A stretch of 36,657 bases of DNA, taken from Bordetella parapertussis (GTDB lineage: Bacteria > Pseudomonadota > Gammaproteobacteria > Burkholderiales > CAIKXV01). The DNA lies in contig CAMDXD010000001.1 in NCBI GenBank assembly GCA_945877995.1, forward strand, positions 1 to 36,657, in the 5' to 3' direction. This document shows positions 4,641 through 23,129 of this stretch, piece after piece. The position numbers and the translations under genes were made by a program. Position 1 is the stretch's first letter. Every line of letters starts with the position of its first letter. The notes below the pieces were generated by a model. It was not told where the DNA came from. It saw only the letters and a list, made by a program, of their open reading frames with translations, and made no database searches.

Positions 4641-4651
4641 GATGCGTTGCT

Positions 4652-5431: not shown

Positions 5432-6696
5432 ATGACGTTGGCCTCGCGAAGTTCGGAGATTGTCTTGTCGTCGTAACCCAGCAGGTCTCCAAGCAGCGCG
5501 GCAGTGTGCTCGCCCAGCAGGGGTGGCGCGCTGCGGTAGGTCGAGCGGTTGCCGTCGATGCCGATGCCCAGCCCCACCTGCGGGATGCGCCGGGCATCGG
5601 GAGCCGACGCGCTGTAGAACAGCCCGCGGGCCACCAGTTCTTCGTCGTGCACCAGCTCGTCGACACGGTTCACCGGGCCCGCCGGTACCCCGGCAGGCGC
5701 AAGCAGCGACAGCCAATGGTCGCGCGGCCGGGTCTTCAGGATCTGCTGTATGTCGCTGACGATTCGCAACCGGTGCTCGAGCCGCCCGGCGTTGCTCGCA
5801 TACGCTTCGTTGCCCGCGTACTCGGGGTGGCCGATCGCCTGCCAGAACCTTTTCCAGATGGCATCGTTGCCCAGGCCGAGCGTGAGCGGTTCGGTCGCCG
5901 TGTCGAATACCTGGTACACGGCGATCACGCTGTCCCTGGCCCCGGAGCGCGCCGGCACGCTGCCCGACCCGAGGTAGGGGACGATGCGGGGCGACATGAA
6001 GCGGGTCATGCTCTCGACCATGGCGATGTCGATCTGATGGCCGCGGCCGGTGGCGCGCCGGTCGAACAATGCGCTGACAATGGCAAAGGCCGCGTCCATG
6101 CCCGACACCAGGTCGGCGGCTGGCGTGCCCACTTTCTGCGGCGGATTGTCTGCCTCCCCGGTGAGATCCATCACGCCGCTGTAGCCCTCGGCAATGAGGT
6201 CGTAGCAGGCAAGATCGCTGCGCTGTCCAGACAGGCCGAACCCCGTGATCGACACATGCACGAGGTCGGCGCGTACTGCGGCGAGCGCAGCGTAATCGAT
6301 GCCAAGCTTGCGCTGGACCCGCTCGACCAGGTTGACCACCACGACATCGACATGCCGGACGAGGTCGTGAAGCACGGCCCGCCCCGCCTCGGATGCATAG
6401 TCGAGCGTGAAACTCTGCTTGTTGCGGTTCACACTGAGGAACCAGAGCGACTCGCCATCGAGGAAGGGCGGCCCCCATGCACGGGCATCGTCACCGCGGC
6501 CCGGCCGCTCGACCTTGATGATCTCCGCACCCATGTCGCCCAGCATCATGGTCGCGTAGGGCCCCGCAACAGACGTTGTCAGGTCGAGTACGCGAACCCC
6601 CCGCAGCAGGCCATCGCCTGCCGGGGCAGGTGGCGGCAGGGAATCGAGTGGCAAAGGCGAGGGGGTGGTCGTGGTCGTGGTCGTGGTCGTGGGCAT
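5428..6696 (-). CDS. Family III (CaiB/BaiF) CoA-transferase with an N-terminal Thr9/Pro-rich extension
   Basis: LRGVRVLDLTTSVAGPYATMMLGDMGAEIIKVE N-terminus and an Asp-containing GFGLSGQRSDLACYDLIAEGYSG segment. ATG 6696 is chosen over GTG 6708 because 6708 lies inside the sigma-54 promoter match. Confidence 0.85.
   Translation of the reverse strand: MPTTTTTTTTTPSPLPLDSLPPPAPAGDGLLRGVRVLDLTTSVAGPYATMMLGDMGAEIIKVERPGRGDDARAWGPPFLDGESLWFLSVNRNKQSFTLDYASEAGRAVLHDLVRHVDVVVVNLVERVQRKLGIDYAALAAVRADLVHVSITGFGLSGQRSDLACYDLIAEGYSGVMDLTGEADNPPQKVGTPAADLVSGMDAAFAIVSALFDRRATGRGHQIDIAMVESMTRFMSPRIVPYLGSGSVPARSGARDSVIAVYQVFDTATEPLTLGLGNDAIWKRFWQAIGHPEYAGNEAYASNAGRLEHRLRIVSDIQQILKTRPRDHWLSLLAPAGVPAGPVNRVDELVHDEELVARGLFYSASAPDARRIPQVGLGIGIDGNRSTYRSAPPLLGEHTAALLGDLLGYDDKTISELREANVI
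6665..6692 (-). repeat. Tandem hexanucleotide repeat, (GTGGTC)4.6 on the + strand, which is (ACGACC)n in the coding sense
   Basis: Read directly: gtggtc gtggtc gtggtc gtggtc gtgg. It encodes the Thr9 run right after the start codon of the CoA-transferase. Confidence 0.9.
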
Positions 6697-6708
6697 GGCT
6701 TGCGACAC

Positions 6709-6849: not shown

Positions 6850-8442
6850 ATGTCTCTTCGGCAGTCTGGCATCGGCGTGCTGGTCACGGATCGACAGGGT
6901 CTGGTCCTGCATGTGAGCGATCTCATGGAGAACCCGCGGGTGCGCGAGGCTGCGCTTGCGTGGCAGCCCTCGCAGCCCGCAGACATGAACGTGGTCGAAG
7001 TGGACGGCCAGCGGCTGATCCTCATGTACCGCGCCGGCCACGACACGTCGGTGCGCTTCGCCCACCAGGCAGGGGCCGAAGACGCGCTGTTCGACTTCGT
7101 TGCCAGTGTCGACTTCGCCTATGCGATTTTCGAGCATCTGTTGAGCAGCCCGTATGAAGCGATGACCGTGGTGGACGAGCGCGGCTGCGTTCGCTACATC
7201 AGCCCCGTCCATGCGCGCTTCTTCGGGCTTGCGCCCGGCGAAGGCTTCGGGCGCCACGTGACCGAAATCATCGAGAACACACGGCTTCATGAAGTGGTGC
7301 GCTCCGGAAAGGCCGAGATCGGCCAGGTACAGAACATGCGTGGCGTGGCGCGGGTCGTCAGCCGCATTCCGATCGTCTCCGGGTCGAAGACGGTGGGCGC
7401 GATCGGTCAGGTGATGTTCAAGGCGCCCGAGGCCGTGCATGACCTCTCGCGCGAGGTGACGCGGCTTCGCTCCGAGGTCGCGTACTACCGCCGGGAACTG
7501 TCCGACATGAGGCTGCGCGGCAGCATGGTCGACCAGATCGTGGGCACCAGCAGCGCCGTGCGCAAGCTGAAGGCGGATATCGAGCGCGTGGCACCACTGG
7601 ATGTCCCGGTCCTGCTGATCGGGGAGAGCGGCACGGGCAAGGAACTCGCGGCCTGCGCGATCCACGCGCTGAGCACGCGCCACGGCAAGCCGATGGTGTC
7701 GGTCAACGCAGCGGCGTTGCCCTCGGGGCTGGTCGAGAGCGAGCTGTTCGGGTACGAACCGGGCGCGTTCTCGGGGGCCGACCGCAAGGGTCGCCACGGC
7801 CGCTTCGAGATGGCGAACCGCTCGACGCTGTTCCTTGACGAGATCGGCGACATGCCGATCGAGGTGCAGGTCAAGCTGCTGCGGGTGCTGCAGGACGGGC
7901 AGTTCGAACGCGTCGGCGGATCGACCAGCACCCAGTCGAACTTCAGGCTGATCAGTGCCACCCACTGCGACCTCGAACAACTGGTCGGCACCGGCCGTTT
8001 CCGGCTCGATCTGTTCTACCGGATCAGCACGGTCGTGCTGCGCCTGCCGCCACTGTGCGAGCGGCTGGAGGACATCCCGCTGCTCGCCGGGCATTTCCTC
8101 AAGGCCTTCGCGCAGCGCAATGAACGCGTGGCGAAAGACATTTCGCCCGAGGCCTGCGCCGTGCTTCGAACCTTGCCCTGGCCGGGCAACATCCGCCAGC
8201 TCCAGCATGATCTCGAGCAGGCGGCGATCTTCAGCGAGGGGAATGTCATCGGCGCCGACGACCTGCCGCGCCGCGCACCGATACACGCGGGAACCATGTC
8301 GCACGTGCGCGAGACCCTCGATGATGTCGAGTTGAAGATGATCGACGAAGCATTGCTCCGCTGCGACGGAAACAAGAAGCAGGCCGCCATTGAACTGGGC
8401 ATCTCGCGCTCGCATCTCTACAAACGGCTGGGCCGACGTTGA
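6850..8442 (+). CDS. Sigma-54-dependent transcriptional activator (PAS sensor, AAA+ domain, Fis-type HTH)
   Basis: ATG 6850 is preceded by AGGAGGAAAGG. The track ORF from 5506 is an antisense over-extension. PAS-like region, Walker A GESGTGKE, GAFSGA loop, Walker B LFLDEIG, C-terminal HTH NKKQAAIELGISRSHLYKRL. Confidence 0.9.
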   Translation: MSLRQSGIGVLVTDRQGLVLHVSDLMENPRVREAALAWQPSQPADMNVVEVDGQRLILMYRAGHDTSVRFAHQAGAEDALFDFVASVDFAYAIFEHLLSSPYEAMTVVDERGCVRYISPVHARFFGLAPGEGFGRHVTEIIENTRLHEVVRSGKAEIGQVQNMRGVARVVSRIPIVSGSKTVGAIGQVMFKAPEAVHDLSREVTRLRSEVAYYRRELSDMRLRGSMVDQIVGTSSAVRKLKADIERVAPLDVPVLLIGESGTGKELAACAIHALSTRHGKPMVSVNAAALPSGLVESELFGYEPGAFSGADRKGRHGRFEMANRSTLFLDEIGDMPIEVQVKLLRVLQDGQFERVGGSTSTQSNFRLISATHCDLEQLVGTGRFRLDLFYRISTVVLRLPPLCERLEDIPLLAGHFLKAFAQRNERVAKDISPEACAVLRTLPWPGNIRQLQHDLEQAAIFSEGNVIGADDLPRRAPIHAGTMSHVRETLDDVELKMIDEALLRCDGNKKQAAIELGISRSHLYKRLGRR

Positions 8443-8455
8443 AGGCCGCGGGACG

Positions 8456-10516
8456 ATGATCGAGCGCACCGATGGCCCGTTGACCGGCCTGGTGGTCGTG
8501 GAACGCGCCGGCAGGCTGTCGGTCAGTGCCTGCGGCTTCCTGCTTGCCAGCCTGGGGGCCCGGGTGATGCGGGTCGAGCAGGCTGCCGACGCGGCTGCGG
8601 TCGCATCGGCGTCGCCCGCCCTCGAGCGACTGTTGATCGGGGGCAAGACCCGGGTCGAGGCCAGCGGGTTCCGCTGGTCGGAGGCGCTTTCGATCGCACG
8701 CGTCGTCCTGCTCTCGGCCGAAGATTCGGATCCCCTGCCGGGCATGCTGCGCGCAACCATCGACCGCCTGAATGATCCAGCCGCCCCGCCGTCGGCCACC
8801 GGCGGCCACGCCCCCGCTTCGGTCGTCTGCTGTATTTCCGCACAAGGTCTGGGGCACCCGGACCTTCCCGAATCGGCCACCGACGCCCTGGTGCAAGCTC
8901 TGGGGGGGCTGATGGCGGTGACCGGCAAACCCGAGGGCGCGCCGGAGTTTGCACGCGTGCCGATCGGAGAACTGAGCGCAGCGGTGATCGCCAGCATCTC
9001 GGTCGTGGCGTCGCTGCTTTCACCGCAGTCGCAGATGATCGACCTGAGCCTGGTCGAGATCGTTGCCGACCAGCTCAGGTCGCATGTATCGCTGCTGCAG
9101 AACGGGCAAGCCAGCGGGTTCCGCTCCGGCTGTGGCCATCCACTGTGCTGCCCGTGGAATGCCTATCGCGCGCTCGATGGCTGGATACTGATCTGTTCGG
9201 CCACCGACGAGCACTGGACCGCGATCGTCGAGTCGATCGGCGAGGGCGCGCTCGCCCGCGATCCACGCTATGCGACGCGTTCGGCGCGCCTTGCGAACCG
9301 GGCTGACGTCGACCGCCTGCTGGAACACCGCACGCAGGGCCGTACCGTCGCGGATCTGCTCGAGACGCTCGGCGCTTCGGGAGTGCCGGTGGGGCCGGTC
9401 GTCCCGATAACGGAGGTTGCCTCGGACCCCGTGCTGCTGGTCAGCGGCAGTGTCGAGCGCTATCGCGCCGAGGCGGTGTCGCGGGTGCCCGTGCGCATCC
9501 GGCCAGCAGGCCTCGACCTGGCAAGGTCGCAGCAGTCCGAACCGGCCTTCGCCGGGCAGCCCGGCGCGCAACGGCATGCGCTCTCGGGTATCCGGGTGGT
9601 TGAGCTGACCGTGTATGCGGCCGGACCCCTGGCCGGGTTCGGGCTCGCCAGCCTCGGTGCAGACGTGACGAAGATCGAATCGCCGGATGGCGAAGCGTGC
9701 AGGCAGTGGCAACCCCAGTTCGACGGTGTGAGCGGCTATTTCGCCAACTACAATGCCGGCAAGCGCTCGCTCTGCCTTGACCTGCGCCACGAGCAGGACC
9801 GCCAGCGACTCTGGGCCCTCCTGGACCAGGCCGACGTGTTCCTGCACAACCTGCGGCCGGGCGCGGTCGAGCGGCTCGGATTCGGCATCGACCCGGTCGT
9901 GCGTCGAAACCCGCGCATCGTGTATTGCGCCATTTCGGGTTACGGCAGCGACGGTCCTTCCTTGCCGGCGCTCGATACCGTGATACAGGGCCATGGCGGG
10001 TTGGCGTCGGCGGTGGGCGACGGGTCGGTGCCGCTTCGCATCGGCTATTCGATCGCCGACCAGCTGACCGGGCACTTCGCGGCCACCGGCATCATCGCGG
10101 CATTGCACGCCGTCGCCCGCACCGGACACGCCCAGCATGTCGACATCGCGATGGCCGATGCCATCGCCTGGCTGACACACCTGGCCTGGGCCGACGCAGA
10201 CGCGTTGCCACCGACCCGCGTGGTGCGCACGAGCGACGGCTGGGTAGTGGCCGCCTCGGCAGACGTGCCCGCAGCGTCGCCCCTGACACGGGCTGCACTC
10301 GTGCAGGCGCTGACAGGGTCGGGCATCACGGCAGTGCCGGTGCTCGAAGCCGGCGAAGTACTCAGGCAGCCGGCACTGACCGCCCGCGGTTCGCTGCAGT
10401 CGGTGCAGGCGCCGCTCGGACATTGCATGATCGACGTATTCGCAGCCCCGTTCGGCATCCCGGTATCGGTACCGACCCGAATGGCCCGGCTCGGAGAAGA
10501 CAATCCAACCGCATGA
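8456..10516 (+). CDS. Tandem fusion of two family-III CoA-transferase domains in one 686-aa polypeptide
   Basis: Start at ATG 8456 (MIERTDGPLTGLVVVE). N-terminal half: LTGLVVVERAGRLSVSACGFLLASLGARVMRVE...ATDALVQALGG. C-terminal half: LSGIRVVELTVYAAGPLAGFGLASLGADVTKIE...ALDTVIQGHGG. Each half repeats the CaiB/BaiF N-terminal signature and the Asp-containing segment. Confidence 0.8.
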   Translation: MIERTDGPLTGLVVVERAGRLSVSACGFLLASLGARVMRVEQAADAAAVASASPALERLLIGGKTRVEASGFRWSEALSIARVVLLSAEDSDPLPGMLRATIDRLNDPAAPPSATGGHAPASVVCCISAQGLGHPDLPESATDALVQALGGLMAVTGKPEGAPEFARVPIGELSAAVIASISVVASLLSPQSQMIDLSLVEIVADQLRSHVSLLQNGQASGFRSGCGHPLCCPWNAYRALDGWILICSATDEHWTAIVESIGEGALARDPRYATRSARLANRADVDRLLEHRTQGRTVADLLETLGASGVPVGPVVPITEVASDPVLLVSGSVERYRAEAVSRVPVRIRPAGLDLARSQQSEPAFAGQPGAQRHALSGIRVVELTVYAAGPLAGFGLASLGADVTKIESPDGEACRQWQPQFDGVSGYFANYNAGKRSLCLDLRHEQDRQRLWALLDQADVFLHNLRPGAVERLGFGIDPVVRRNPRIVYCAISGYGSDGPSLPALDTVIQGHGGLASAVGDGSVPLRIGYSIADQLTGHFAATGIIAALHAVARTGHAQHVDIAMADAIAWLTHLAWADADALPPTRVVRTSDGWVVAASADVPAASPLTRAALVQALTGSGITAVPVLEAGEVLRQPALTARGSLQSVQAPLGHCMIDVFAAPFGIPVSVPTRMARLGEDNPTA

Positions 10517-10529
10517 AAGACCTGGAAAC

Positions 10530-11741
10530 ATGAACGGCAACCTTCCACTCTCCGGCGTGCGTATCGCCGACTTCAGCCGGCTGCTGCCGGGGCCCTTCGC
10601 CACGCAGATGCTGGGCGCACTGGGGGCAGACATCATCAAGGTCGAAGAGCCGGTCACGGGCGACCCCAGCCGCCATAGCTATCCGCGGTACCGCGAGAAC
10701 AGCGTCTATTTCCATGCGGTCAACACGAACAAGCGCAGCATCGAAATGGACCTGCGCAGCGACCAGGGCAAGGAACAGGCGCGCCGGCTGATCGGACACT
10801 GCGACGTCGTGGTCGAGTCGTTCCGGCCGGGGCTGATGCGCAAGCTGGGCCTCGACTACGCCAGCGCGAAGGCGATCAACCCGGGCATCATCTACTGCTC
10901 GATCAGCGGCTTCGGACAGACCGGGCCGCTGTCGCATGTCGCCGGCCATGACCTGGTGATCCAGGCGATGACCGGCCTGATGGGCTGCGCCCCCGACGGA
11001 TCGGCGCCGGTGCCGGGGCTGCAGGCGGCCGACTTCGCCGGCGGTCTCTACGCGGTGATCGGCATCCAGGCGGCGCTCGCCCGCCGCGCCAAGAGCGGCG
11101 AGGGCTGTGAAGTCGATCTGGCGATGTTCGAGACCCTGCTCGACCTGTGCCTCATTCCGCTCAGTTCGGCGTTTTCCAGGGCAGCCGGCGGGTCGGGCGA
11201 GCCGCGGATGGAAGCCTTCGGGGGCAATCCGAGGTACTCGACCTACCGGACGAAGGACGGGCGATACGCCGCAGTGACGCTGCTGGAAACGAAGATATGG
11301 AAGGAGTTCTGCACCGCCATCGGTCGCCTGGACCTCGTGCACGCAGACGAGGCGCCGGCCGATCGCCTGAGCACGCACGGCGAGCGCGGGCTTGCGTACC
11401 GCGCCGCACTGGCGCAGTACTGCGCCTCGTACACATGGGACGAGATCCTGTCGCACATGGAGCGCACCGGCATTGCGATCTGCCCGGTGTGCAGCCCGCA
11501 GGATGCGATGGACCTCGCGCATGTAAGCGCACGCGGATCGATCGACCACTTCGACCATCCACAGGAGGGACGGATACCGCACCTGGTCAGTCCGTTCGCC
11601 ACGGCAGGGCTCGCTCTGCGGCATCCGGTGCCCGCACCCTCGCTCGGACAGCACACCGCGCAGATCCTGCGCGAGCTGGGTTATGGCGAGAGCGAGATCG
11701 CCGCCTCGATCACGAAAGCGAAGAAGGAAGCGCATCAATGA
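10530..11741 (+). CDS. Family III (CaiB/BaiF) CoA-transferase
   Basis: 403 aa. LSGVRIADFSRLLPGPFATQMLGALGADIIKVE and GFGQTGPLSHVAGHDLVIQAMTG. Confidence 0.9.
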   Translation: MNGNLPLSGVRIADFSRLLPGPFATQMLGALGADIIKVEEPVTGDPSRHSYPRYRENSVYFHAVNTNKRSIEMDLRSDQGKEQARRLIGHCDVVVESFRPGLMRKLGLDYASAKAINPGIIYCSISGFGQTGPLSHVAGHDLVIQAMTGLMGCAPDGSAPVPGLQAADFAGGLYAVIGIQAALARRAKSGEGCEVDLAMFETLLDLCLIPLSSAFSRAAGGSGEPRMEAFGGNPRYSTYRTKDGRYAAVTLLETKIWKEFCTAIGRLDLVHADEAPADRLSTHGERGLAYRAALAQYCASYTWDEILSHMERTGIAICPVCSPQDAMDLAHVSARGSIDHFDHPQEGRIPHLVSPFATAGLALRHPVPAPSLGQHTAQILRELGYGESEIAASITKAKKEAHQ

Positions 11742-12532
11742 AGAACTCATCACACCCGGACGACCTGGTGCTCGTGCGCATGCAGGACCATGGCACAGCA
11801 GGTCGCATCGCCTTCGTCACGATCAACAACCCCACCAAGCGCAATGCGCTCGGCATGGCGGGCAAGCGCGCGATCGCGGAAGCGTTCCTGAGTTTGTCCC
11901 TCGACGAAGACCTGCGCGCCGTGGTCCTGACTGGCGCTGGCGAAAAATCCTTCATCGCCGGGGCAGACCTGGCGGAGATGAAGGACCTGACCGTCGACGA
12001 GGCGCGGGAAGAGCACACGCTTACCCACTATGCGTGCGACTCGATCCGGCGTTGCCCGGTGCCTGTCATCGCGCGCATCAACGGCTACTGCTTCGGTGCC
12101 GGAATGGAGCTCGCCGCCTCGTGCGACCTGCGGGCATCGTCCGAGCATGCGAAATTCGGCATGCCGGAGGTACGCGTGGGCCTGCCGTCCGGGATGGAAG
12201 CAGCGCTGCTGCCGGCGCTCCTGGGCTGGGGCAAGGCGGCCGAGCTCGTGCTGACCGGAGACATCTTCGAGGCGAAGGAAATGCACCAGTTCGGCTTCCT
12301 GCAGAAGCTGGTCCCTGCAGGGGAACTCGACGCGGCCATCGAGCAGTGGCTGCAGTCGATACTGGTGAGCGGACCGCGCGCCGTGCGATTGCAGAAATCG
12401 CTGCTGCGCGACTGGGAACGGATGTCCCTGTCCGACAGCATCCGCAGGGGCATCGAAATGTGTGTCGAGGCCCGTCGCACCGATGAGCCGTCCAGGCTGA
12501 TGGCCGCGTTCCTTGCACGCAAGAGAACCTGA
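11738..12532 (+). CDS. Enoyl-CoA hydratase/isomerase family protein
   Basis: ATG 11738 is in an ATGA overlap with the upstream stop. SFIAGADLAEM and NGYCFGAGMELAASCD. Confidence 0.9.
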   Translation: MKNSSHPDDLVLVRMQDHGTAGRIAFVTINNPTKRNALGMAGKRAIAEAFLSLSLDEDLRAVVLTGAGEKSFIAGADLAEMKDLTVDEAREEHTLTHYACDSIRRCPVPVIARINGYCFGAGMELAASCDLRASSEHAKFGMPEVRVGLPSGMEAALLPALLGWGKAAELVLTGDIFEAKEMHQFGFLQKLVPAGELDAAIEQWLQSILVSGPRAVRLQKSLLRDWERMSLSDSIRRGIEMCVEARRTDEPSRLMAAFLARKRT

Positions 12533-12587
12533 TTCGCTGAACGGATCACGGGCCTGGTCTACAGGGCCTGGATCAGAGGAGGAATCG

Positions 12588-13568
12588 ATGAGCAAAGTGT
12601 CATCCGCCGCCACGGCGGGTCTGCTGGTCGTCGCAGGGCTGGTGGCCGACATCGCCAGCGCGCAGACGAGCTATCCGATGAAACCGGTCAGGCTCATCGT
12701 TCCTTTCCCACCGGGTGGAAGCACGGATATCGTCGGCCGCGTCGCTGCGCAGAGCCTCTCTGAACTCTGGGGGCAGCAGGTGACGGTGGACAACCGGGGC
12801 GGCGCAAGCGGCCAGATCGGGGTCGAGCTCGCGGCACAGGCGCCCCCGGACGGCCATACGCTGGTCATCGGACATATCGGTACGTTCGGCGTCAACCCGT
12901 CGCTGTTTCCCAAGCTCCGCTATGACGCCATCAGGGATTTCGCGCCCATTTCCCTGATCGCACGCGTGCCGAACATGCTCGCCGTACATCCCTCGCTGCC
13001 AGTGAAGACGGTCAAACAGTTGGTGGACATGGCCAGGCAGCGCCCGGGGACGCTCAACTACGGCTCCAGCGGCAGCGGCAGCAATCCGTTCCTGTGCGTT
13101 GAGTACTTCAAGATGCTCACGCGCACCGACATCGTCCATGTCGCCTACAAGGGCACCGGACCGATGCTGACCGACCTGATCGCCGGCCATATCTCGCTCA
13201 CCATCAACGGCGTGCCGCCCCTGCTTCCCCACGTCAAGTCGAAGCGGCTCAATGCCATCGCCGTGGCGAGCGACAAACGGCTCAGCCTGTTGCCCGACCT
13301 GCCGACGATCCGGGAATCGGGTGTCCCCGAATACGAGGTGACGCAGTGGTACGGCATGCTCGCGCCCGCCAGCACGCCGCGGGTGCTCGTGAACAGGATC
13401 AACGCGGACATCCAGGCCTTCCTCGCGCGGCCCGACACTTCTGCACGGATGTCGGGTGAAGGTGCGATCCCTTCGGGCAGCAGCCCCGAAGAGTTCGGCG
13501 CACTGATCCGCGCGGAAATCGAGCGCTGGGCCAAGGTCGTCAAGGCCACGGGCGCCAAGCCCGACTAG
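12588..13568 (+). CDS. Bug-family periplasmic substrate-binding protein
   Basis: ATG 12588 after GAGGAGG. Signal peptide then KPVRLIVPFPPGGSTDIVGR, and a C-terminal EFGALIRAEIERWAKVVKATGAKPD typical of the family. Confidence 0.9.
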   Translation: MSKVSSAATAGLLVVAGLVADIASAQTSYPMKPVRLIVPFPPGGSTDIVGRVAAQSLSELWGQQVTVDNRGGASGQIGVELAAQAPPDGHTLVIGHIGTFGVNPSLFPKLRYDAIRDFAPISLIARVPNMLAVHPSLPVKTVKQLVDMARQRPGTLNYGSSGSGSNPFLCVEYFKMLTRTDIVHVAYKGTGPMLTDLIAGHISLTINGVPPLLPHVKSKRLNAIAVASDKRLSLLPDLPTIRESGVPEYEVTQWYGMLAPASTPRVLVNRINADIQAFLARPDTSARMSGEGAIPSGSSPEEFGALIRAEIERWAKVVKATGAKPD

Positions 13569-13593: not shown

Positions 13594-14457
13594 ATGATCG
13601 TCGATTCGCAGGTACACATCTGGGGGGCAGACACGCCCGAGCGACCGTGGCCCGTCCCGCCCGCGGGGCTGAAGGCGGTGCCTGTCCACAACAATGGCAT
13701 CCCGTTCACGCAGGAGCACGTGCTGGGTGAAATGGATGCGGCGGGGGTGGGTCGAGCGATCATCGTGCCGCCTTCGTGGGAGGGTGATCGCAACGACCTG
13801 GCCCTTGCAGCGGCAGCGGCGTATCCGGGCCGGTTCGCGGTGATGGGCCGGCTGGATATCCAGCGCAGCGACGCAAGGTCACAGATCCGGGACTGGCTCA
13901 AGCGGCCCGGCATGCTGGGCTTGCGCTTCGCACTGCACACGCCGCTGCTGGAGCGTCCGTTCGTGTCGGGAGAGCTTGACTGGGTGTGGCGTGAGGCGGA
14001 AGCGGCGGGCGTCCCGGTGATGATCCTGGTGCCCCACCGACTGATGCCGTCGGTAGCCCGGGTCGCCGAGCGACATCCCGGGCTGAAACTGGTGATGGAC
14101 CACCTCGGCCTGGTGCACGGCAAGGATGAAGAGGCCTTTGCCGACATGGGCAAGCTGCTCGAGCTTGCGAAGTATCCCAACGTCGCTGCAAAGGCGTCGA
14201 TCACGCCTTTCTTCACCACCGATGCCTATCCGTTCCGGAATCTGCACGAACCCCTGCGCCGCGTATTCGATGCGTTCGGGCCAAGGCGCATGTTCTGGGG
14301 CTCGGACCTGTCTCGGCTTCCCTGCCCGTACCGCCAGGGCGTGACGATGTTCACCGAAGCGCTACCCTGGCTGAGCGGAGAGGACCTGGACTGGGTCATG
14401 GGGCGTGGCGTGTGCGAATGGCTGGGCTGGCCAGCCGTATCGACAGGAGCACGGTAA
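13594..14457 (+). CDS. Amidohydrolase-2 (TIM-barrel metal-dependent hydrolase, lactonase/decarboxylase-like) family protein
   Basis: 287 aa. The N-terminal MIVDSQVHIW and the later VMDHLG and WGSDL segments resemble the PF04909-type family. Its stop TAA overlaps the next ATG (TAATG). Confidence 0.8.
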   Translation: MIVDSQVHIWGADTPERPWPVPPAGLKAVPVHNNGIPFTQEHVLGEMDAAGVGRAIIVPPSWEGDRNDLALAAAAAYPGRFAVMGRLDIQRSDARSQIRDWLKRPGMLGLRFALHTPLLERPFVSGELDWVWREAEAAGVPVMILVPHRLMPSVARVAERHPGLKLVMDHLGLVHGKDEEAFADMGKLLELAKYPNVAAKASITPFFTTDAYPFRNLHEPLRRVFDAFGPRRMFWGSDLSRLPCPYRQGVTMFTEALPWLSGEDLDWVMGRGVCEWLGWPAVSTGAR

Positions 14458-14999
14458 TGGAAGAGCGCGTTTTCCTGCTCAGTCCCGAGGCGCCGGCGCC
14501 CGATTCGGAAGTGACGGCACCGGCATCGACGCGCCTGCCATCGGAGGGCCTGAGGATCGGCTACCTCGACAACGGCAAGGGCAACGCAGACCACCTGCTG
14601 CGGTTCATCCGCGAATCGCTGCACGGTCGACTCGACGTTTCATCGAGCGTTTCGCGTCGCAAGCAGAGCGTAAGCCTCGCGGCAGGCAACGAGTTGATCG
14701 ACCAGTTCGCGCGGGAGGCCGATCTGGTGATCACCGCGATGGCGGATTGAGGATCGTGCACGTCGTGGAGTGTCCACGACATGTGTGAACTGGCCAAACG
14801 CGGTGTCCCCGGGGTCGTGGTCTGCAGCACACCCTTCGCGAAGCTGGCCGTGGCACAGGCCCGGATCTTCGGCGCACCCGATCTTCCGATGGTGGTCATC
14901 GAGCATCCGCTGGGCGGCCTGGCCGACGCGCAGATCCGCGAGCGCGCGCACCACGCAGTTGGGCAGGTCATGGACCTGATCGAGAGGATGCGGGCATGA
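14457..14999 (+). CDS. UxxC selenoprotein (U-G-S-C motif, Sec98 encoded by in-frame TGA 14748-14750), 180 aa, possibly GrdB/PrdB-like
   Basis: Track ORFs ending at 14750 and starting at 14781 share one frame. The only stop between them is TGA, and the 30 nt after it read GSCTSWSVHD in frame. The downstream piece has no RBS. A SECIS-like hairpin starts 5 nt after the UGA. ATG 14457 and the stop at 14999 both overlap neighbouring genes. Confidence 0.8.
14755..14787 (+). promoter_or_regulatory. Bacterial SECIS-like recoding hairpin
   Basis: Upper stem GUCGUGGA (14762-14769) pairs perfectly with UCCACGAC (14773-14780) around a GUG loop. Below a C61/A81 mismatch the lower stem is A60-U82, C59-G83, G58.U84, U57.G85, G56.U86, C55-G87. 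The apical loop sits 20-22 nt after the UGA. Confidence 0.7.
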
Positions 15000-16108
15000 G
15001 CACCAACCGCACGTTTTCGCGCGGAGCCCACGCAGGGATCGACACAGTCAATGACTACGTGGCCATCAACGACCTCTTCCACGAGCGGGGCTGGACGGAT
15101 GGTTTTCCAATCATCCCGCCGACGGAAAAGCTGGTCGGGCAGATGCTCGCCTATTGCGACAGGCCATGGGATCGCCCGGTAGCGAAGATCCCTCCGCGAT
15201 ATGGCGAAGCTACGCCGGTGCGGCTGGCCACGAACGCCGTGATGGCGGGCTGCCGGCCCGAGTACTTCCCGGTCGTCGTCGCGGCGATCGAGGCACTGTG
15301 CGAAGAGCCGTTCAACCTGTACGGCCTGCAGGCCACGACGCATCCCGTCTCGCCGTTCATCATCGTCAACGGGCCGATCGCGAAGGAACTCGGCATCAAC
15401 AGCGGCTGCGGCGCGCTGGGCTCGGGCTGCCGCAGCAATGCCACGATCGGCAGGGCCGTGCGCCTGTCGCTGGTCAACATCGGCGGCGCGCAACCCGGCA
15501 CGGGCGACATGGCGACGTTCGGCTCGCCGGCGAAGTACAGCTACCTGGCCGCGGAGAACGAGGCCGAGAGCCCGTGGGAGCCGCTCCATGTCGAACGCGG
15601 CTTCCCGCCGGAAGCCTCGACCGTCACGGTAATCGGAGCGGAGTGCCCCCACAACGTCAACGACCACCAGAGCATCACCGGTGCCGGCATCCTGCAGATG
15701 ATCGCAGGCACGATGGCGACGACCGGGAACAACGACGTCTACAATATCGAACCGCATCCTGCGGTCATCATCGGTCCGGAGCATGCGAGGACGATCGCCG
15801 CGGATGGCTATTCCAAGGCGGACGTCAAACGTTATCTGTTCGAGAATGCAACATTGCCGCTGCAACGCTTCTCGCGTGAAAACATCGAACGCCGTTTCCT
15901 GGTGACACACAAGGAGCGCTACGGCGATGCCGGTTCGGCCGTCCCCGTCCCGATGTTCCAGCGTGCGCAAGACCTGCTGGTCGTCGTGATCGGCGGCCCC
16001 GGGAAGCACTCGGCCACGGTGCCCACCTTCGGCGTGACCGTCCCGATCACACGTGCCATCCAGACGGTTGGCGGCGCCTTCGCCACTTCCGTGGAGCAGT
16101 TCAAATGA
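14996..16108 (+). CDS. Protein of unknown function (370 aa), translationally coupled partner of the selenoprotein
   Basis: ATG 14996 is in an ATGA overlap with the selenoprotein stop, and its own stop overlaps the next ATG (16105). I recognise no catalytic family. Notable segments: ERGWTDGFPIIPPT and the Gly/Cys-rich GINSGCGALGSGCRSN. Confidence 0.8.
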   Translation: MSTNRTFSRGAHAGIDTVNDYVAINDLFHERGWTDGFPIIPPTEKLVGQMLAYCDRPWDRPVAKIPPRYGEATPVRLATNAVMAGCRPEYFPVVVAAIEALCEEPFNLYGLQATTHPVSPFIIVNGPIAKELGINSGCGALGSGCRSNATIGRAVRLSLVNIGGAQPGTGDMATFGSPAKYSYLAAENEAESPWEPLHVERGFPPEASTVTVIGAECPHNVNDHQSITGAGILQMIAGTMATTGNNDVYNIEPHPAVIIGPEHARTIAADGYSKADVKRYLFENATLPLQRFSRENIERRFLVTHKERYGDAGSAVPVPMFQRAQDLLVVVIGGPGKHSATVPTFGVTVPITRAIQTVGGAFATSVEQFK

Positions 16109-17319
16109 CCAGCACGCGCAGCCCGCTGCAGGGGATCACCGTCCTCGACCTCGGGCAGATCTACAACGGCCCCTACGCAACCTTCCTGATGGGCATGGCA
16201 GGTGCCCGGGTGATCAAGATCGAGCCGCTCGAGGGCGAGTCGATGCGCCAGAGAACGCTGATCGGCGGCGCTGCGCTACCGTTCGCGATGCTGAATTCGA
16301 ACAAGCAGGCGGTGACGCTGAACCTGAAGACCGCGCGCGGGCGCGAGCTGCTGATCTCGATGGCCCGCCGCGCAGACGTCCTGCTGGAAAATTTCCTGCC
16401 GGGAAAGCTGGACAAGCTCGGCGTCGGCTATGACGTCCTGAGCGAGGCGAATCCCCGGCTCATCGTGGCATCAGGGTCGGGGTATGGCAGCACCGGGCCG
16501 TACCGAGACTACCCAGCGATGGACATCTCGATCCAGGCGATGTCCGGCGCGATGGCGGTGACCGGATTCCCCGACGGGCCGCCGACGAAGATCGGCCCTG
16601 CACTCTGCGATTTCTCCTGCGGTATCCATCTGTATGGTGCGGTCGTGACGGCGCTTTACGAGCGGGAGAAGACCGGGCGCGGGCAGAAGGTGGAAGTGGC
16701 GATGCTCGACGCCATCTATTTTTCCCTGGCATCGAGCCTGGGGCTCTACTTCGCCTCGGGAAATTACGGCGGGCCGGTCGACTTCCCGCAACGTACCGGT
16801 AACACCCATAGCGGAAAGGCCGCCGCGCCCTACAGCGTCTACCCGGCGAAGGATGGCTACATCGCCATCCTGTGCACCAACAACAAGCACTGGGTTTCCC
16901 TTACCAGGGTGATGGGCCGGGAGGAACTCGCAGCCGACCCCCGCTTCGACACGCCAAAGAAGCGGGCGAACCTGAGCCATGAAGTCGACGCCGTCGTGGG
17001 CGCCTACGCGGCACGCTTCCAGCGCGATGAACTGTTCGCCCTCCTGTCGCCGCACCACATCCCCTGTGCCCCGGTGCGGGACCTGGCCGAGGTCACCAAC
17101 GACCCGCACCTGCACCAGCGGGGCATGCTGGAATGGATGGACCATCCGAAGTACGGGCGGATCGCCGCCGCTCGCAGCCCGCTCCGGTTCGAGCACCAAC
17201 CGCCGCCCGAACTCAAGCCCAGCGCCGAGCTCGGGGAGCACAACAGCGAGGTGTATGAGGGATGGCTGGGGCTTTCGAAGGAAGAGGTCGCGGAACTGAA
17301 GCGTGACCGGGTGATCTGA
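16105..17319 (+). CDS. Family III (CaiB/BaiF) CoA-transferase
   Basis: 404 aa. LQGITVLDLGQIYNGPYATFLMGMAGARVIKIE and GYGSTGPYRDYPAMDISIQAMSG. Confidence 0.9.
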   Translation: MTSTRSPLQGITVLDLGQIYNGPYATFLMGMAGARVIKIEPLEGESMRQRTLIGGAALPFAMLNSNKQAVTLNLKTARGRELLISMARRADVLLENFLPGKLDKLGVGYDVLSEANPRLIVASGSGYGSTGPYRDYPAMDISIQAMSGAMAVTGFPDGPPTKIGPALCDFSCGIHLYGAVVTALYEREKTGRGQKVEVAMLDAIYFSLASSLGLYFASGNYGGPVDFPQRTGNTHSGKAAAPYSVYPAKDGYIAILCTNNKHWVSLTRVMGREELAADPRFDTPKKRANLSHEVDAVVGAYAARFQRDELFALLSPHHIPCAPVRDLAEVTNDPHLHQRGMLEWMDHPKYGRIAAARSPLRFEHQPPPELKPSAELGEHNSEVYEGWLGLSKEEVAELKRDRVI

Positions 17320-17422: not shown

Positions 17423-18424
17423 CTACTGCGGCCGTATCCCCGCCGCCTTCATCACCTTGCGCCACTTCGCCAGCTCGCTGCGCAGGTATTCGCCGAACTG
17501 CTCGGGCGTGCTGCCGACGACCTTGCCGCCAGCCGCCTCCAGCGCGGCGCGCAGGTCGGGCGCGTCGCGCAGCATCGCGACGATCTCGGCATTGAGCCGC
17601 TGCACGATCTCGCGCGGCGTGCCGCTGCGCACGACCACCGCATGCCAGGACTCTGCAGCGAAGCCCGGATAGCCCTGTTCCGCGACCGTGGGCACGTCGG
17701 GCAACGGCGCGAAGCGGCCGGGCGAGGACACCGCGAGCGCACGCAGCCGCCCGGCCTTCACCTGCTGCACCATGATGATCGGCGTGAGCATGCCCATCGA
17801 CACATGGCCGGCCATGATGTCGCTCGCTGCAGGGTTGTCACCCTTGTAGGGGACATGGGTGAGCTTCATGCCTGCGGCCAGGCTCAGGTACTCGGCCACC
17901 AGGTGGGTCGCGGTGCCCTGGCCGGTGGTGGCGTTGGTGAGTTCCAGCGGCTTCGACCGGGCGAGTCGCACCAACTCAGGCAGCGAACGCACCGGCAGCG
18001 AGGGGTTCGCCACCAGCACGAACGGAAAGGTCGCGACCAGGGTGACCGGCGCCACGTCCTGCAACGGATCGTAGACCGGCTTCTCCTGGCCAGCCGGGGT
18101 GGTGGCGAGCACGCCGGCGGCGCCGACGAACAGGGTGTAGCCGTCAGATGGCGCCTTGAGCAGCGCCTCGACGCCGATCATGCCAGCGGCACCGGGCCGG
18201 TTCTCGACCAGCACTGGCCGGCCGAGCGCATCACCGAGCCGCACGGCGATCATCCGGCCGGTCGTGTCGACCGCACCACCCGCAGCGAACGGAACGATCA
18301 TGCGCAAGGGCCTTGCCGGCCACCCCGCCGCAGGTCCCTCGGCTGCCAGCACGGCCGACGGCACAGCCGACGACAGACCTGCGCCGGCCAGCAGGCCGAT
18401 CGACAACAGCACGCTTCGCTTCAT
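17423..18424 (-). CDS. Bug-family periplasmic substrate-binding protein
   Basis: 333 aa. Signal peptide then RPLRMIVPFAAGGAVDTTGR, and a C-terminal EQFGEYLRSELAKWRKVMKAAGIRPQ. Confidence 0.9.
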   Translation of the reverse strand: MKRSVLLSIGLLAGAGLSSAVPSAVLAAEGPAAGWPARPLRMIVPFAAGGAVDTTGRMIAVRLGDALGRPVLVENRPGAAGMIGVEALLKAPSDGYTLFVGAAGVLATTPAGQEKPVYDPLQDVAPVTLVATFPFVLVANPSLPVRSLPELVRLARSKPLELTNATTGQGTATHLVAEYLSLAAGMKLTHVPYKGDNPAASDIMAGHVSMGMLTPIIMVQQVKAGRLRALAVSSPGRFAPLPDVPTVAEQGYPGFAAESWHAVVVRSGTPREIVQRLNAEIVAMLRDAPDLRAALEAAGGKVVGSTPEQFGEYLRSELAKWRKVMKAAGIRPQ

Positions 18425-20000: not shown

Positions 20001-20510
20001 TCATGCCAGCAACCACGGGCGTTCGCCCAGCTTCGACGACAGACCGTCGCGCAGCGCGCGCGTGCCCCGTGACACCCGCTGCGCCGCATTGGCCTGCGAC
20101 AGGCCGAAGATGGCGGCGATCGACTGCTGGCCCATCGCGTACTGGTAGCGGCTGGCGACCGCTTTCTGCTGGCGGGGCGGCAGCTTTTCGTAGCTGTGGA
20201 CGATGAGGGTCCGCACTTCGGCGAGCAGCGTATCGGCCTCGGGATCGTTCGGGGGAAGCAGATCATGGGCCGGACGGAGCCGGGCACGCGCGAACGACAA
20301 TGCTTCGTTATTCACGACCTCGAGCAGCCTCACGAAGACCCTCCGGGTCACGTCCTCGGCATCGTAGCGCCCGAGGCAGGCGTCGCGGCAGGCGCTGCAG
20401 TAGATGAAGCGGACATACTTGCGTACGAAACGATCGATGCCGCCCGGATCGCTGGCGATGACGGCTTCGATGAGGGCGCGGTCGGCGTCCACGTCAGAAC
20501 GAGTAGACAT
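20001..20510 (-). CDS. ECF-type sigma-70 family RNA polymerase sigma factor
   Basis: 169 aa. A region-2-like N-terminus and a region-4 HTH (LPPRQQKAVASRYQYAMGQQSIAAIFGLSQANAAQRVSRGTRALR). Confidence 0.85.
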   Translation of the reverse strand: MSTRSDVDADRALIEAVIASDPGGIDRFVRKYVRFIYCSACRDACLGRYDAEDVTRRVFVRLLEVVNNEALSFARARLRPAHDLLPPNDPEADTLLAEVRTLIVHSYEKLPPRQQKAVASRYQYAMGQQSIAAIFGLSQANAAQRVSRGTRALRDGLSSKLGERPWLLA

Positions 20511-20623
20511 TCAGCTGGGAACGAAAATTTGAGTACCTGTGACATTTTGCAATGTTTTCTGCCCGAATGTGTGGTGGGCTCAGATCAGCAGTTACGCAGG
20601 CTCACGCCAACGCCCTCGACATT

Positions 20624-20639
20624 TGGAATATGCTTTGCA
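20624..20639 (+). promoter_or_regulatory. Weak sigma-54-like -24/-12 element upstream of the nitrile-hydratase-family operon
   Basis: TGGAAT ATGCT TTGCA has GG and TTGCA at the consensus spacing. The predicted start near 20650 would leave GGGAGAGG as the RBS before ATG 20664. It is an imperfect match in an AT-rich stretch. Confidence 0.3.
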
Positions 20640-20663
20640 GCAGAACGTATGGGAGAGGCGGCA

Positions 20664-21023
20664 ATGAGCGAAGCAGCAGAGAAGCGCCTGGCGGCCGACA
20701 TCGGCGGCGACCCGGCCGGCCCGGTGGACACCGCCGATCACGGCATGAAGTTCTGGGAAAAGCAGGCGAACGCGATGCGTTCGACGCTGGGCCGCAAGGG
20801 CATCACGCGCACCGACGAACTGCGCCGCGCGGCGGAAGAGCTTGGCGAGCGCTACGCCGGGCTGGCCTACTTCGAGCGTACGACCAGCGCACTGCGCACC
20901 ATCCTCATCGAGAAGGGCCTCATCACCGAGGACGAACTCGTGGCGAAGATGGCCGAAGTGCGGGCGCGCTTCGACGTACCAGGCGGTACGCAGCCCTCGC
21001 CTGCGCAGCGGAGCGGCCAATGA
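20664..21023 (+). CDS. Nitrile hydratase family beta subunit, N-terminal-half-like subunit
   Basis: 119 aa. The helical segment ERYAGLAYFERTTSALRTILIEKGLITEDEL resembles the NHase beta N-domain. An alternative ATG exists at 20649. Confidence 0.65.
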   Translation: MSEAAEKRLAADIGGDPAGPVDTADHGMKFWEKQANAMRSTLGRKGITRTDELRRAAEELGERYAGLAYFERTTSALRTILIEKGLITEDELVAKMAEVRARFDVPGGTQPSPAQRSGQ

Positions 21024-21358
21024 ACACGACCTCCGCGGCCTCCGACACGGGGGTGTCGGCCTACACGCCCGCGCCCGGGCATCTCTACAACGTAGGCGAC
21101 CGGGTGCGGATCCGGCGCAACTATCCGCCCGGCCATCGCCGCACGCCCAACTACATCAAGGGCAAGACCGGCGTCATCGAGCGCATCTGCGGTGCCTTCC
21201 CCAACCCCGAAGAACTCGCCTACGGGTTCGCGGGCGAGCCGAAGAAGGTCCTCTACCGTGTGCGCTTCATGCAGAACACCGTGTGGCCCGACTACCAGGG
21301 GCCCGCACGCGATCTCATCGAGATGGAAGTCTTCGAGCACTGGCTCGAGCCGGCCTGA
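21020..21358 (+). CDS. Nitrile hydratase family beta subunit, C-terminal (SH3-like) half subunit
   Basis: ATGA overlap with the preceding gene. GDRVRIRRNYPPGHRRTPNYIKGKTGVIERI...YRVRF...LIEMEVFEHWLE matches the NHase beta C-terminal pattern. Confidence 0.75.
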   Translation: MNTTSAASDTGVSAYTPAPGHLYNVGDRVRIRRNYPPGHRRTPNYIKGKTGVIERICGAFPNPEELAYGFAGEPKKVLYRVRFMQNTVWPDYQGPARDLIEMEVFEHWLEPA

Positions 21359-21394: not shown

Positions 21395-22099
21395 ATGCAC
21401 GATCATCCGTTCGACCACTACGCCAACCGTCGTCCGGGTCATGGCCATGGCCACGACCACGACCACGATGCGCACCATCCAATCGAAGAGCGCGACGACG
21501 GCCCTCCCTCGGAATACGAGATCATGAGCCGCGCCATGCAGGAATTGCTCGAGGCGAAGGGCCTCATCACCGCCGATGAAGTGCGCGAGCGCATGGAGGT
21601 GTTCGACGAAGCGTTTCCGTACCGGGGCGCGATGGTGGTGGCGCATGCATGGACCGATCCGGCGTTCAAGCAGCGCCTGCTCGCCGACGGCAAGGCTGCC
21701 ATCTCGGAACTGGGCATCGGCATGGAGGCCGAGCGCCTGATCGCGGTCGAGAACACCCTCGAGGTGCACAACGTCATCGTGTGCACGCTGTGTTCATGCT
21801 ATCCGCGAACCCTGCTCGGCATGCCGCCGACCTGGTACAAGAGCGACAACTACCGCGCACGGGTCGTCTATGAGCCGCGCGCAGTCCTGAAAGAATTTGG
21901 CACTGAACTGCCCGACGACGTGACCATGCGCGTCCACGATTCGAACGCCGACATGCGCTACATCGTAGTCCCCATGCGCCCGGCCGGCACCGAAGGCTGG
22001 AGCGAGGAGAAGCTAGCCGAGATGTTGACCCGGGACACGCTGGTGGGCGTGACCGTGCCGCGCGTTCGGAAGGATTTGCCTGGCAGCCCTGCTGCTTGA
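21395..22099 (+). CDS. Nitrile hydratase family alpha-type (metal-binding) subunit, cobalt-type, with a His-rich N-terminal extension
   Basis: Claw-setting motif VCTLCSCYP followed by GMPPTWYKSDNYRARVV. The N-terminus MHDHPFDHYANRRPGHGHGHDHDHDAHH is His/Asp-rich. Confidence 0.9.
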   Translation: MHDHPFDHYANRRPGHGHGHDHDHDAHHPIEERDDGPPSEYEIMSRAMQELLEAKGLITADEVRERMEVFDEAFPYRGAMVVAHAWTDPAFKQRLLADGKAAISELGIGMEAERLIAVENTLEVHNVIVCTLCSCYPRTLLGMPPTWYKSDNYRARVVYEPRAVLKEFGTELPDDVTMRVHDSNADMRYIVVPMRPAGTEGWSEEKLAEMLTRDTLVGVTVPRVRKDLPGSPAA

Positions 22100-22133: not shown

Positions 22134-23129
22134 CTAGTCCGGCTTGATGCCCACGGCTTTCACGATATTCGCGAACTTCTCCTGTTCCGCCAGAACGTAG
22201 GCGCGGGTGCGCTCGGGCGTCATCACCATCGCCTCAGCGGTGAGCTGGGCCATCCGCTCCTTTACTTCCGGGCGAGCCAGCGCCTTGTTGATCTCTTCGT
22301 TCAGGCGGGTGACCACCGCCGCGGGCGTGCCGGCCGGTGCAAACAGGGTATGGAACTCCTGTACGTCGTAGCCCTTCAATCCCTGTTCGTCCAGCGTGGG
22401 CACCGACGGAAGGTAGGGAGAACGAGTCAGTCCGGTCACACCCAGGACCCGCAGCTTGCCTGCCTGGATGTAGGGCAACGAAGTGAGCAGGTTGACGACG
22501 TTTATCTGCAGCTCGTTGGCCATCTGGGCGGTGACCGCGATGGAACCCGTCTTGAACGGCACATGCACGATATCGATGCCTGCAAGGCTCTTGAACAGCT
22601 CCCCTGCAAGGTGCGTTATGCCGCCGGTGCCGCCTGAGCCGAACAGGAGTTTGCCCGGCTGCGCCTTGGCAAGCGCGACCAGCTCCGCAACCGTGTTCGC
22701 TGGCACGGCGGTGCCGACCAACAGCGTATTGGTGATCGTGGCAATCGCTGCGACGGGCACCATCGTACGCAGGTCATACGGAACGTTGAGGTAGACGCTG
22801 GGCGCGATGACCTGGCTGTTGCCTACGGTCACGAGCGTATAGCCATCGGGCGCGGCTTTCACTGCAGCTGCCATCCCGATGCGTCCTGCCGCACCCAGAC
22901 GGTTGTCGACGATGACCGGCTGCCCCATCTGTTCGCCGATCTTCTGGCCGATCAGGCGCGCAAGGACGTCGTACGAGCCGCCTGGGCCATACGGCACGAT
23001 GATCGTGAGGCGCCGAGCTGGAAAGCTTTCGGCGGCGAAGACGACAGGCGACAGGAAAGCCGCTGAAAGCGGCATGAAAGCCAGGCATCGGCGTACTGCG
23101 GCGCTCAGTCGTGCATGTCTGTTGCTCAT
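22134..23129 (-). CDS. Bug-family periplasmic substrate-binding protein
   Basis: 331 aa. Signal peptide then RRLTIIVPYGPGGSYDVLAR, and a C-terminal EKFANIVKAVGIKPD. Confidence 0.9.
   Translation of the reverse strand: MSNRHARLSAAVRRCLAFMPLSAAFLSPVVFAAESFPARRLTIIVPYGPGGSYDVLARLIGQKIGEQMGQPVIVDNRLGAAGRIGMAAAVKAAPDGYTLVTVGNSQVIAPSVYLNVPYDLRTMVPVAAIATITNTLLVGTAVPANTVAELVALAKAQPGKLLFGSGGTGGITHLAGELFKSLAGIDIVHVPFKTGSIAVTAQMANELQINVVNLLTSLPYIQAGKLRVLGVTGLTRSPYLPSVPTLDEQGLKGYDVQEFHTLFAPAGTPAAVVTRLNEEINKALARPEVKERMAQLTAEAMVMTPERTRAYVLAEQEKFANIVKAVGIKPD

Follow-up and report, generated by a model that had tools for sequence, protein, structure and literature searches.

The window described here is a stretch of 36,657 nucleotides (nt), positions 1 to 36,657 of contig CAMDXD010000001.1, and its central feature is a gene at 14457-14999 that is divided by an in-frame TGA at 14748-14750. 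This TGA is very probably a selenocysteine (Sec) codon in a member of the catalogued UGSC family. It is highly likely that the gene encodes a 180-residue (aa) UGSC selenoprotein, decoded through a selenocysteine insertion sequence (SECIS) and probably acting with a 370-aa partner protein as a two-subunit enzyme. The Sec codon is not in itself a new finding: Pfam and NCBIfam models of the family exist, and annotation with NF041046 should name the gene. The modest additions made here are the linkage to the partner, natural fusions of the two proteins, a predicted fold that is not that of thioredoxin, and a SECIS core frozen specifically in Sec forms. The window itself adds one more UGSC member, from an uncultured freshwater-type betaproteobacterium. 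The features of the gene are as follows:

14457-14999, plus strand: UGSC-family selenoprotein gene, 180 codons including the proposed Sec98, stop TGA at 14997-14999; one frame with a single internal TGA, matching NF041046 and PF24696.
14445-14449, plus strand: Shine-Dalgarno-like AGGAG, read from the sequence, 7 nt ahead of the ATG at 14457.
14748-14750, plus strand: UGA as proposed Sec98, first residue of U-G-S-C; in related loci the column is TGA or TGC/TGT.

The ATG at 14457, the TGA at 14748-14750, and a second ATG at 14781 lie in-frame with one another, and the TGA at 14748 is the sole stop ahead of 14997-14999, as the initial annotation of this DNA had stated. The same annotation had given the translation of the 30 nt 3′ of the TGA as GSCTSWSVHD, which is correct. 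The read-through product of 180 aa therefore runs ...ADLVITAMAD-U-GSCTSWSVHDMCEL..., with the codon of Cys101 (TGC) at 14757-14759. The start of the gene overlaps the stop of the gene upstream (TAATG, 14455-14459).

With U written as C, the read-through product reaches 144.3 bits with NF041046, the NCBIfam model named “UGSC family (seleno)protein”, whose cut-off is 125 bits; the match spans positions 2-146 of the 147 in the profile. With PF24696 it scores 163.1 bits (cut-off 25). The halves on either side of the TGA score only 42.7 and 56.4 bits against NF041046, both under its cut-off. Because the read-through product fits a curated family end to end, the TGA split is more than chance. The initial annotation had named such an NCBI model and had called its function not established; it was right on both points. 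Descriptions of the UGSC family date from 2007-2008 (Zhang & Gladyshev; PMC1976440, PMC2398784), later surveys count it, and its function is called unknown. UGSC genes make up 8.2% of selenoprotein genes in the Global Ocean Sampling (GOS) data, placing them among the top aquatic-metagenome families (PMC9402790), and they are reported to be commonest in non-marine waters (PMC1976440, PMC2398784). That preference fits the freshwater and soil Burkholderiales metagenome-assembled genomes (MAGs) found among the relatives of the window gene, the closest of which is from a Lake Loclat MAG (94% identity). The window gene shares with the family a full-length match, U-G-S-C in the same column, the existence of Sec and Cys forms, and a predicted SECIS directly after the UGA.

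Relatives were sought among 5.8 billion proteins. In full-length relatives of about 175-180 residues (Acidimicrobiia, Embleya), Cys occupies the TGA column, within ADCGSCTSWSVHD, and the window TGA aligns with the invariant Cys of that motif. The closer proteobacterial relatives are annotated as fragments whose last residues are precisely ...AMAD; the closest of all in the public protein collections searched are pieces of 93-136 aa and 72 aa. Such fragment calls mean that the sizes and contexts of the UGSC family are under-counted. The DNA of 164 related loci was retrieved, giving 165 loci for comparison with the window included. The column is TGA in 126 and a Cys codon (TGC/TGT) in 39. Position 98 is a Sec/Cys column, the pattern that the initial annotation had put forward for checking, and its other comparative checks likewise favour its reading. 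In the closest, betaproteobacterial set (the window, L001-L004, and L005-L084) all 85 loci have TGA between conserved flanks; the motif is UGSC in 74 of them and the variant UGAC in 11.

A stem-loop lies immediately 3′ of the TGA:

14762-14780, plus strand: SECIS core, a perfect 8-bp stem GUCGUGGA/UCCACGAC (14762-14769/14773-14780) with a GUG loop at 14770-14772.
14754-14788, plus strand: full local hairpin, consisting of the core, a C14761/A14781 mismatch, and a lower stem (14754-14760/14782-14788).

The initial annotation described eight pairs under a GUG loop, a C/A mismatch, and six more pairs below it. The upper part of this description stands. The lower stem is specific to the lineage of the window and cannot be extended to the family: it has seven pairs here, of which three are G-U, and in the register of the window it is mostly unpaired in other members. 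When the upper stem was held fixed and the lower stem was compared family-wide with synonymous recodings, no excess stability was found (z = -0.09, p = 0.9), and the whole 33-35-nt hairpin was dropped as a candidate conserved element. As the lower stem shows no sign of selection and is mostly unpaired elsewhere, the conserved element is the 19-nt core. This core occurs once in the window (0.03 occurrences expected) and hardly varies among 119 non-redundant Sec loci from at least two deep clades. Its pairs are retained at 99-100% over 99 distinct sequences, and the rare changes are mostly pairing-neutral: one double change from G-C to A-U (L006), four changes to G-U, and one break. The frozen core is a simple and specific probe for Sec forms in raw assemblies.

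The geometry of the hairpin agrees with that of bacterial SECIS elements, as had been claimed for it. The published consensus (PMC13188914 Fig. 2) specifies an upper stem of 4-16 bp capped by an apical loop of 3-9 nt, a G within the first two nucleotides of the loop, as a rule with G or U next, a distance of 16-37 nt from UGA to loop, and a minimum free energy (MFE) of at most -7.5 kcal/mol. The corresponding values in the window are a 3-nt GUG loop, 8 bp, 19 nt (14751-14769), and -17 to -18 kcal/mol (-18.1 for 14745-14800). With the element of Escherichia coli fdhF and the consensus, the window hairpin shares its location inside the coding region directly after the UGA, a small loop starting G-U, an upper stem of 8 bp, the 19-nt spacing, and a stable fold. 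The fdhF SECIS has a bulged U; the window fold has none, its loop is only 3 nt, and its sequence is unrelated to that of fdhF. Rfam gave no match over the whole window at the gathering threshold, nor at 14600-14950 with E up to 10.

The significance of the hairpin lies in comparative data and not in fold energy alone. Synonymous codon choice was compared among genes that encode the identical peptide GSCTSWSVHD, comprising 101 Sec forms and 18 Cys forms:

Thr codon: Sec forms, ACG 100, ACA 1; Cys forms, ACG 13, ACC 5.
First Ser codon: Sec forms, TCG 101; Cys forms, TCG 16, TCA 1, TCC 1.
Second Ser codon: Sec forms, AGT 101; Cys forms, AGC 18.
Val codon: Sec forms, GTC 101; Cys forms, GTG 12, GTC 6.
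His codon: Sec forms, CAC 98, CAT 3; Cys forms, CAC 17, CAT 1.
Asp codon: Sec forms, GAC 99, GAT 2; Cys forms, GAC 18.

The U of the loop comes from the AGT codon; counted downwards from the loop, it is the GTC codon that completes the second pair of the stem. Judged by these counts, the hairpin core (8-bp stem and GUG loop) is frozen at synonymous sites only in TGA forms. Sec forms also fold more stably relative to their own synonymous recodings (mean z -1.88) than Cys forms do (-0.32; Mann-Whitney p = 5e-10, with shared ancestry ignored).

The best surviving alternative, still improbable, is that the hairpin is not a SECIS and is instead either a by-product of a conserved peptide and GC-rich codon bias or an element that serves another purpose, for instance in mRNA stability or pausing. 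Of the synonymous recodings drawn with local codon usage weights, about 12% fold equally well, covariation of the hairpin is not measurable, and five Cys forms (L096, L097, L098, L102, and L104) retain the 8-bp stem, with GTC at the Val codon and with AGC in place of AGT, which gives a GCG loop. A by-product of peptide and composition would not be expected to supply the loop U through AGT, a rare codon at such GC content, in 101 of 101 TGA forms and in none of 18 Cys forms, nor to fix GTC in TGA forms only. The peptide itself is not rigid, as that of several Cys forms has drifted (CGSCTAYSV, CGSCSAFSV, that is, TAYSV and SAFSV after the second Cys). The geometry also agrees with the SECIS model, and the stems in Cys genes fit the published idea that SECIS remnants persist after Sec-to-Cys conversion (PMC1794560); the five stem-retaining forms may be such remnants.

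A second and very unlikely alternative holds that the TGA is a real stop, produced either in a pseudogene or through an error of sequencing or assembly that turned a Cys codon (TGC/TGT) into TGA, so that only a 97-residue fragment is made. TGC and TGT are one substitution away from TGA, TGA is the usual stop in the window, and gene callers in public data split the UGSC gene. Against this, the same TGA recurs in 126 independent loci from many assemblies, the Sec-specific hairpin follows it, and the 82 codons downstream hold their frame under purifying selection. The G+C content at third codon positions (GC3) is 0.80-0.81 both upstream and downstream of the TGA, and 0.81 over those 82 codons. 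In comparisons of the window gene with L006, L002, and L001, synonymous and non-synonymous codon differences number 28:21, 18:28, and 22:28 downstream and 15:22, 18:22, and 16:26 upstream, counts that point to similar purifying selection on either side of TGA 14748.

It is equally hard to credit that two polypeptides are made, a 97-aa N-terminal one and a 72-aa one from ATG 14781. The initial annotation held that the 72-aa piece has no ribosome-binding site. A GGAG does in fact lie at 14767-14770, 10 nt before this ATG, and would serve such a start; what survives of the claim is that the GGAG is buried in the stem and so sequestered. Its presence is probably why gene finders call a separate 72-aa open reading frame (ORF), and both pieces are listed as genes in databases. 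The ten codons from TGA to ATG specify the motif that the family conserves best, the other Sec clade has S, L, T, or A instead of Met after HD, and Cys homologs and fusion proteins are single chains, all of which speak against independent translation of the two pieces.

Decoding of the UGA in another way, by near-cognate read-through as Trp or Cys (Cys insertion and near-cognate decoding are reported at the Sec-UGA of other selenoproteins under selenium limitation) or under a reassigned code, has very little to recommend it, given that homologs invariably have Cys, the residue that usually stands in for Sec, at this column, that the dedicated hairpin would be left without explanation, and that the code is standard since TGA terminates 15 of the 23 window genes. 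It is the commonest ordinary stop there, ending both the UGSC gene and that of the partner. A window-wide scan for frames split by TGA yielded three other sites past a composition filter and no further selenoprotein candidate; one site lies on the strand opposite the amidohydrolase gene, and the remaining two are stop codons that separate adjacent genes in the same frame.

Decoding of UGA 14748 as Sec therefore remains the preferred reading, and the second part of the finding concerns the protein encoded directly downstream:

14996-16108, plus strand: partner protein of 370 aa, unnamed family; its start overlaps the stop of the UGSC gene (ATGA).

The partner family has more than 8,000 database homologs, and neither Pfam nor NCBIfam gives a match, even at E up to 1 over 57 of them. 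A partner gene lies beside the UGSC gene on the same strand in 136 of 155 loci. Its position differs between clades. Of 83 non-redundant betaproteobacterial loci, 69 have it downstream of UGSC on the same strand; of 36 other Sec loci, 34 have it as the adjacent gene, upstream in 32 and downstream in 2; and of 36 Cys-form loci, 33 have it upstream. Between the two clades, the partners are 40% identical over 340 residues (E = 8e-80) and the gene order is inverted. The association also holds in reverse, as each of three partner homologs that were picked regardless of UGSC is immediately preceded by a UGSC gene split by TGA, and the three genomic contexts are unrelated. Almost all betaproteobacterial loci that lack the partner hold the UGAC paralog.

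Natural fusions, seen in some Cys forms as proteins of about 530-590 aa, provide a further link. An exhaustive profile search returned 2,871 cluster representatives at E ≤ 1e-3; among the top 150, about 15 measure 485-591 residues. Fourteen of these long proteins align along both domains, and the fusion was confirmed pairwise in the two that were tested, each with UGSC N-terminal and the partner C-terminal: P0180 (43% identity over 321 residues, E = 3e-83) and P0244 (33% over 371, E = 2e-53). Pfam recognises only the UGSC part, even in these fusions. Adjacency with inverted gene order and natural fusion together constitute strong evidence that UGSC and the partner act together. A remark of 2008 has UGSC fused to “Unknown_1”, a domain that may or may not be the partner; apart from that remark, the systematic pairing is undescribed in the family literature.

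Conserved residues are found in both proteins. Across 16 members of UGSC, N39, K41, U/C98, and G99 are invariant, and C101 and D108 are present in 15. Across 16 partners, the motifs are DGxPxxPP, NAVMAG followed by Cys in 13, and a TT pair; N148, G152, R153, A154, D171, and W194 are invariant, E187 is present in 15, and Cys86 is often conserved. An AlphaFold2 (AF2) model of the partner has a mean predicted local distance difference test (pLDDT) score of 83.7 and a predicted template modelling (pTM) score of 0.85. Class I fumarate hydratase was its best fold match, with a probability of up to 0.95, and was rejected at a template modelling (TM) score of 0.26 and a root-mean-square deviation (rmsd) of about 17 Å.

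Several side observations concern the UGSC genes and their copies. The UGAC paralogs (L017, L030, L042, L043, L058, L060, L062, L064, L066, L079, and L081, with the match mostly near 6001-6540) keep the TGA and the same hairpin core and have no adjacent partner gene; a TctC receptor gene follows the paralog in at least four loci (L017, L042, L043, and L058). Some MAGs hold two UGSC loci on different contigs (L063/L074, L035/L046, L062/L077, L065/L078, L056/L076, and L064/L082), and the module is therefore multi-copy in some genomes. P0166 (285 aa) is a fusion of another type, in which a NifU-like domain (PF01106, 28.7 bits) forms the C-terminal part behind the UGSC domain, and it hints at a link to iron-sulfur or CxxC redox chemistry.

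The fold of UGSC was called “likely Trx-like” (thioredoxin-like) in the 2008 paper. It was modelled here on P0001, a natural Cys-form homolog about 40% identical to the window protein. The AF2 model (pLDDT 90.4, pTM 0.86) is an alternating beta-alpha sandwich in which the redox Cys98 lies between a strand at 90-96 and a helix at 99-114. Its fold matches in the PDB are generic (flavodoxin-like, P-loop GTPase, and phosphotransferase system PTS-IIB proteins, TM about 0.45-0.5), and there is no thioredoxin-fold protein among the 50 matches listed. The model thus predicts a (beta-alpha)5 flavodoxin/Rossmann-like fold and does not support the published one. Thioredoxin-fold selenoproteins with UxxC or CxxU (Trx-, peroxiredoxin (Prx)-, DsbA-, and SelW-like) share with UGSC a U-x-x-C motif at a strand-helix junction and the existence of Cys homologs; UGSC differs in its predicted doubly wound beta-alpha-beta architecture, which is not a thioredoxin fold. 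Sequence searches of the PDB with the UGSC and partner family profiles returned only noise (E ≥ 0.25).

UGSC also bears a resemblance to GrdB and PrdB, the selenoprotein B subunits of the glycine, betaine, sarcosine, and D-proline reductases (TIGR01917, TIGR01918, and PF07355). Residues 84-163 of the window protein match positions 333-406 of the GrdB profile TIGR01917 (E = 3e-5), and a weak match around the Sec region recurs in 18 of 30 UGSC members (E ≤ 0.01). PrdB is listed as a UxxC protein (PMC2398784). The features in common are therefore U-x-x-C, a weak but repeated similarity, and a second, larger protein, and distant kinship of UGSC with the U-x-x-C domain of GrdB/PrdB appears plausible from these alignments. 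The differences are the length of UGSC, only 180 aa, and the host, which is betaproteobacterial and not clostridial. The second reductase-B model, TIGR01918, gives 16.3 bits against a cut-off of 65.45. No similarity to the pyruvoyl proproteins GrdE/PrdA was found in 57 partner members by Pfam and NCBIfam scans at E up to 1, and no grdA-, grdC-, or grdD-like genes were seen near UGSC.

The following mechanism is proposed. UGA 14748 would be read as Sec during translation and, by analogy with E. coli fdhF, the mRNA stem-loop at 14762-14780, 19 nt downstream, would recruit SelB-GTP-Sec-tRNASec to the ribosome. In the modelled fold, Sec98 and Cys101 would lie where a beta-strand ends and the N-terminus of a helix begins, a position typical of redox pairs, and would cycle between selenol/thiol and selenenylsulfide states. 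UGSC and the partner would form a two-subunit enzyme, present as a single polypeptide in some Cys-form relatives, and the partner would probably form the substrate pocket with N148, R153, D171, E187, and Cys86. Reductive chemistry would be most likely, in a loose and speculative analogy to GrdB/PrdB of the glycine and proline reductases, and a still speculative candidate for the substrate is an imported organic acid, judged from the operon of TctC, amidohydrolase_2, and CoA-transferase genes. The more specific proposal, that UGSC and the partner constitute an unrecognised Sec/Cys-dependent enzyme whose small subunit would be a free-standing relative of the Sec domain of GrdB/PrdB, is put forward tentatively, with rather less than an even chance of being right. 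If true, one of the most abundant environmental selenoprotein families would be a substrate reductase and not a thioredoxin-like thiol oxidoreductase, and the partner family would carry the substrate site. The near-obligatory partner, the fusions, and the non-thioredoxin fold make the function of this family more approachable.

A number of observations weigh against the interpretation of the window gene and its partner given above. Genes selA, selB, selC, and selD are all absent among the window ORFs scanned, as are tRNA genes of any kind from the window, and no tRNA-Sec was found in 54 related loci. Sec machinery in the organism is assumed, because the TGA, the hairpin, and the frame beyond them persist across many independent genomes; Betaproteobacteria are among the lineages reported to carry the Sec-decoding trait commonly (PMC1794560). 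Taken alone, the hairpin is not unusual at 65% GC (z = -1.13 against dinucleotide shuffles), and its covariation is nil, equal to that of shuffles, a comparison that is uninformative because six of the eight stem pairs never vary. Support for the SECIS thus rests on conservation and on the Sec/Cys contrast, in which shared ancestry is left in. The GrdB match scores 23.1 bits against a cut-off of 602.2 and was placed by residue range; scores so far under the cut-off mean that UGSC is not a GrdB. The partner model has no convincing structural relative. The guess at a substrate is weak because the context outside the UGSC-partner pair varies: genes for amidohydrolase_2, TctC, and CoA-transferase occur in a minority of loci only, and operon context was set aside as a substrate clue.

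In the window, the UGSC gene belongs to a translationally coupled run of five genes, encoding a TctC receptor, amidohydrolase_2, UGSC, the 370-aa partner, and a CoA-transferase. The members not listed above are:

12513-13568, plus strand: TctC-type (Bug) periplasmic solute receptor (PF03401, 197 bits), probably the first gene of the operon.
13594-14457, plus strand: amidohydrolase_2 gene (PF04909, 96.9 bits), the translationally coupled upstream neighbour of UGSC.
16105-17319, plus strand: family III CoA-transferase (PF02515, 375 bits); its start overlaps the stop of the partner gene (ATGA).

The amidohydrolase_2-UGSC arrangement is also found in L001, L002, and L170 and is not general; L002 and L165 also have a family III CoA-transferase. 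Housekeeping genes, and not catabolic operons, surround some UGSC-partner pairs (L003 at 30-210; L013, L027, L033, L070, and L084; L168/L169 at 3465-5113). In one group of these contexts the pair directly follows tRNA-Ala(GGC)-tRNA-Glu(UUC), and in another it lies between an SMC_N-family (RecN-like) gene and fur/bamE/dapB.

Elsewhere the window is rich in paralogs of these neighbours. There are four family III CoA-transferase paralogs, at 5428-6708 (minus strand), 8390-10516 (plus), 10530-11741 (plus), and 16105-17319 (plus). The ORF at 8390-10516 encodes 708 aa with its best CoA-transferase match from residue 398 and may be a tandem or fused form. The three TctC/Bug receptors are encoded at 12513-13568 (plus), 17423-18424 (minus), and 22134-23129 (minus). 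Genes for the beta and alpha subunits of nitrile hydratase (20552-21358 and 21395-22099, both plus) adjoin a divergent regulator with sigma-70 region 4 (extracytoplasmic function (ECF)-like) at 20001-20510 (minus). Two unusually long and otherwise unassigned RidA/L-PSP proteins are encoded on the minus strand at 23172-24560 (462 aa) and 28197-29486 (429 aa), and the domain accounts for only about 80-110 residues of each.

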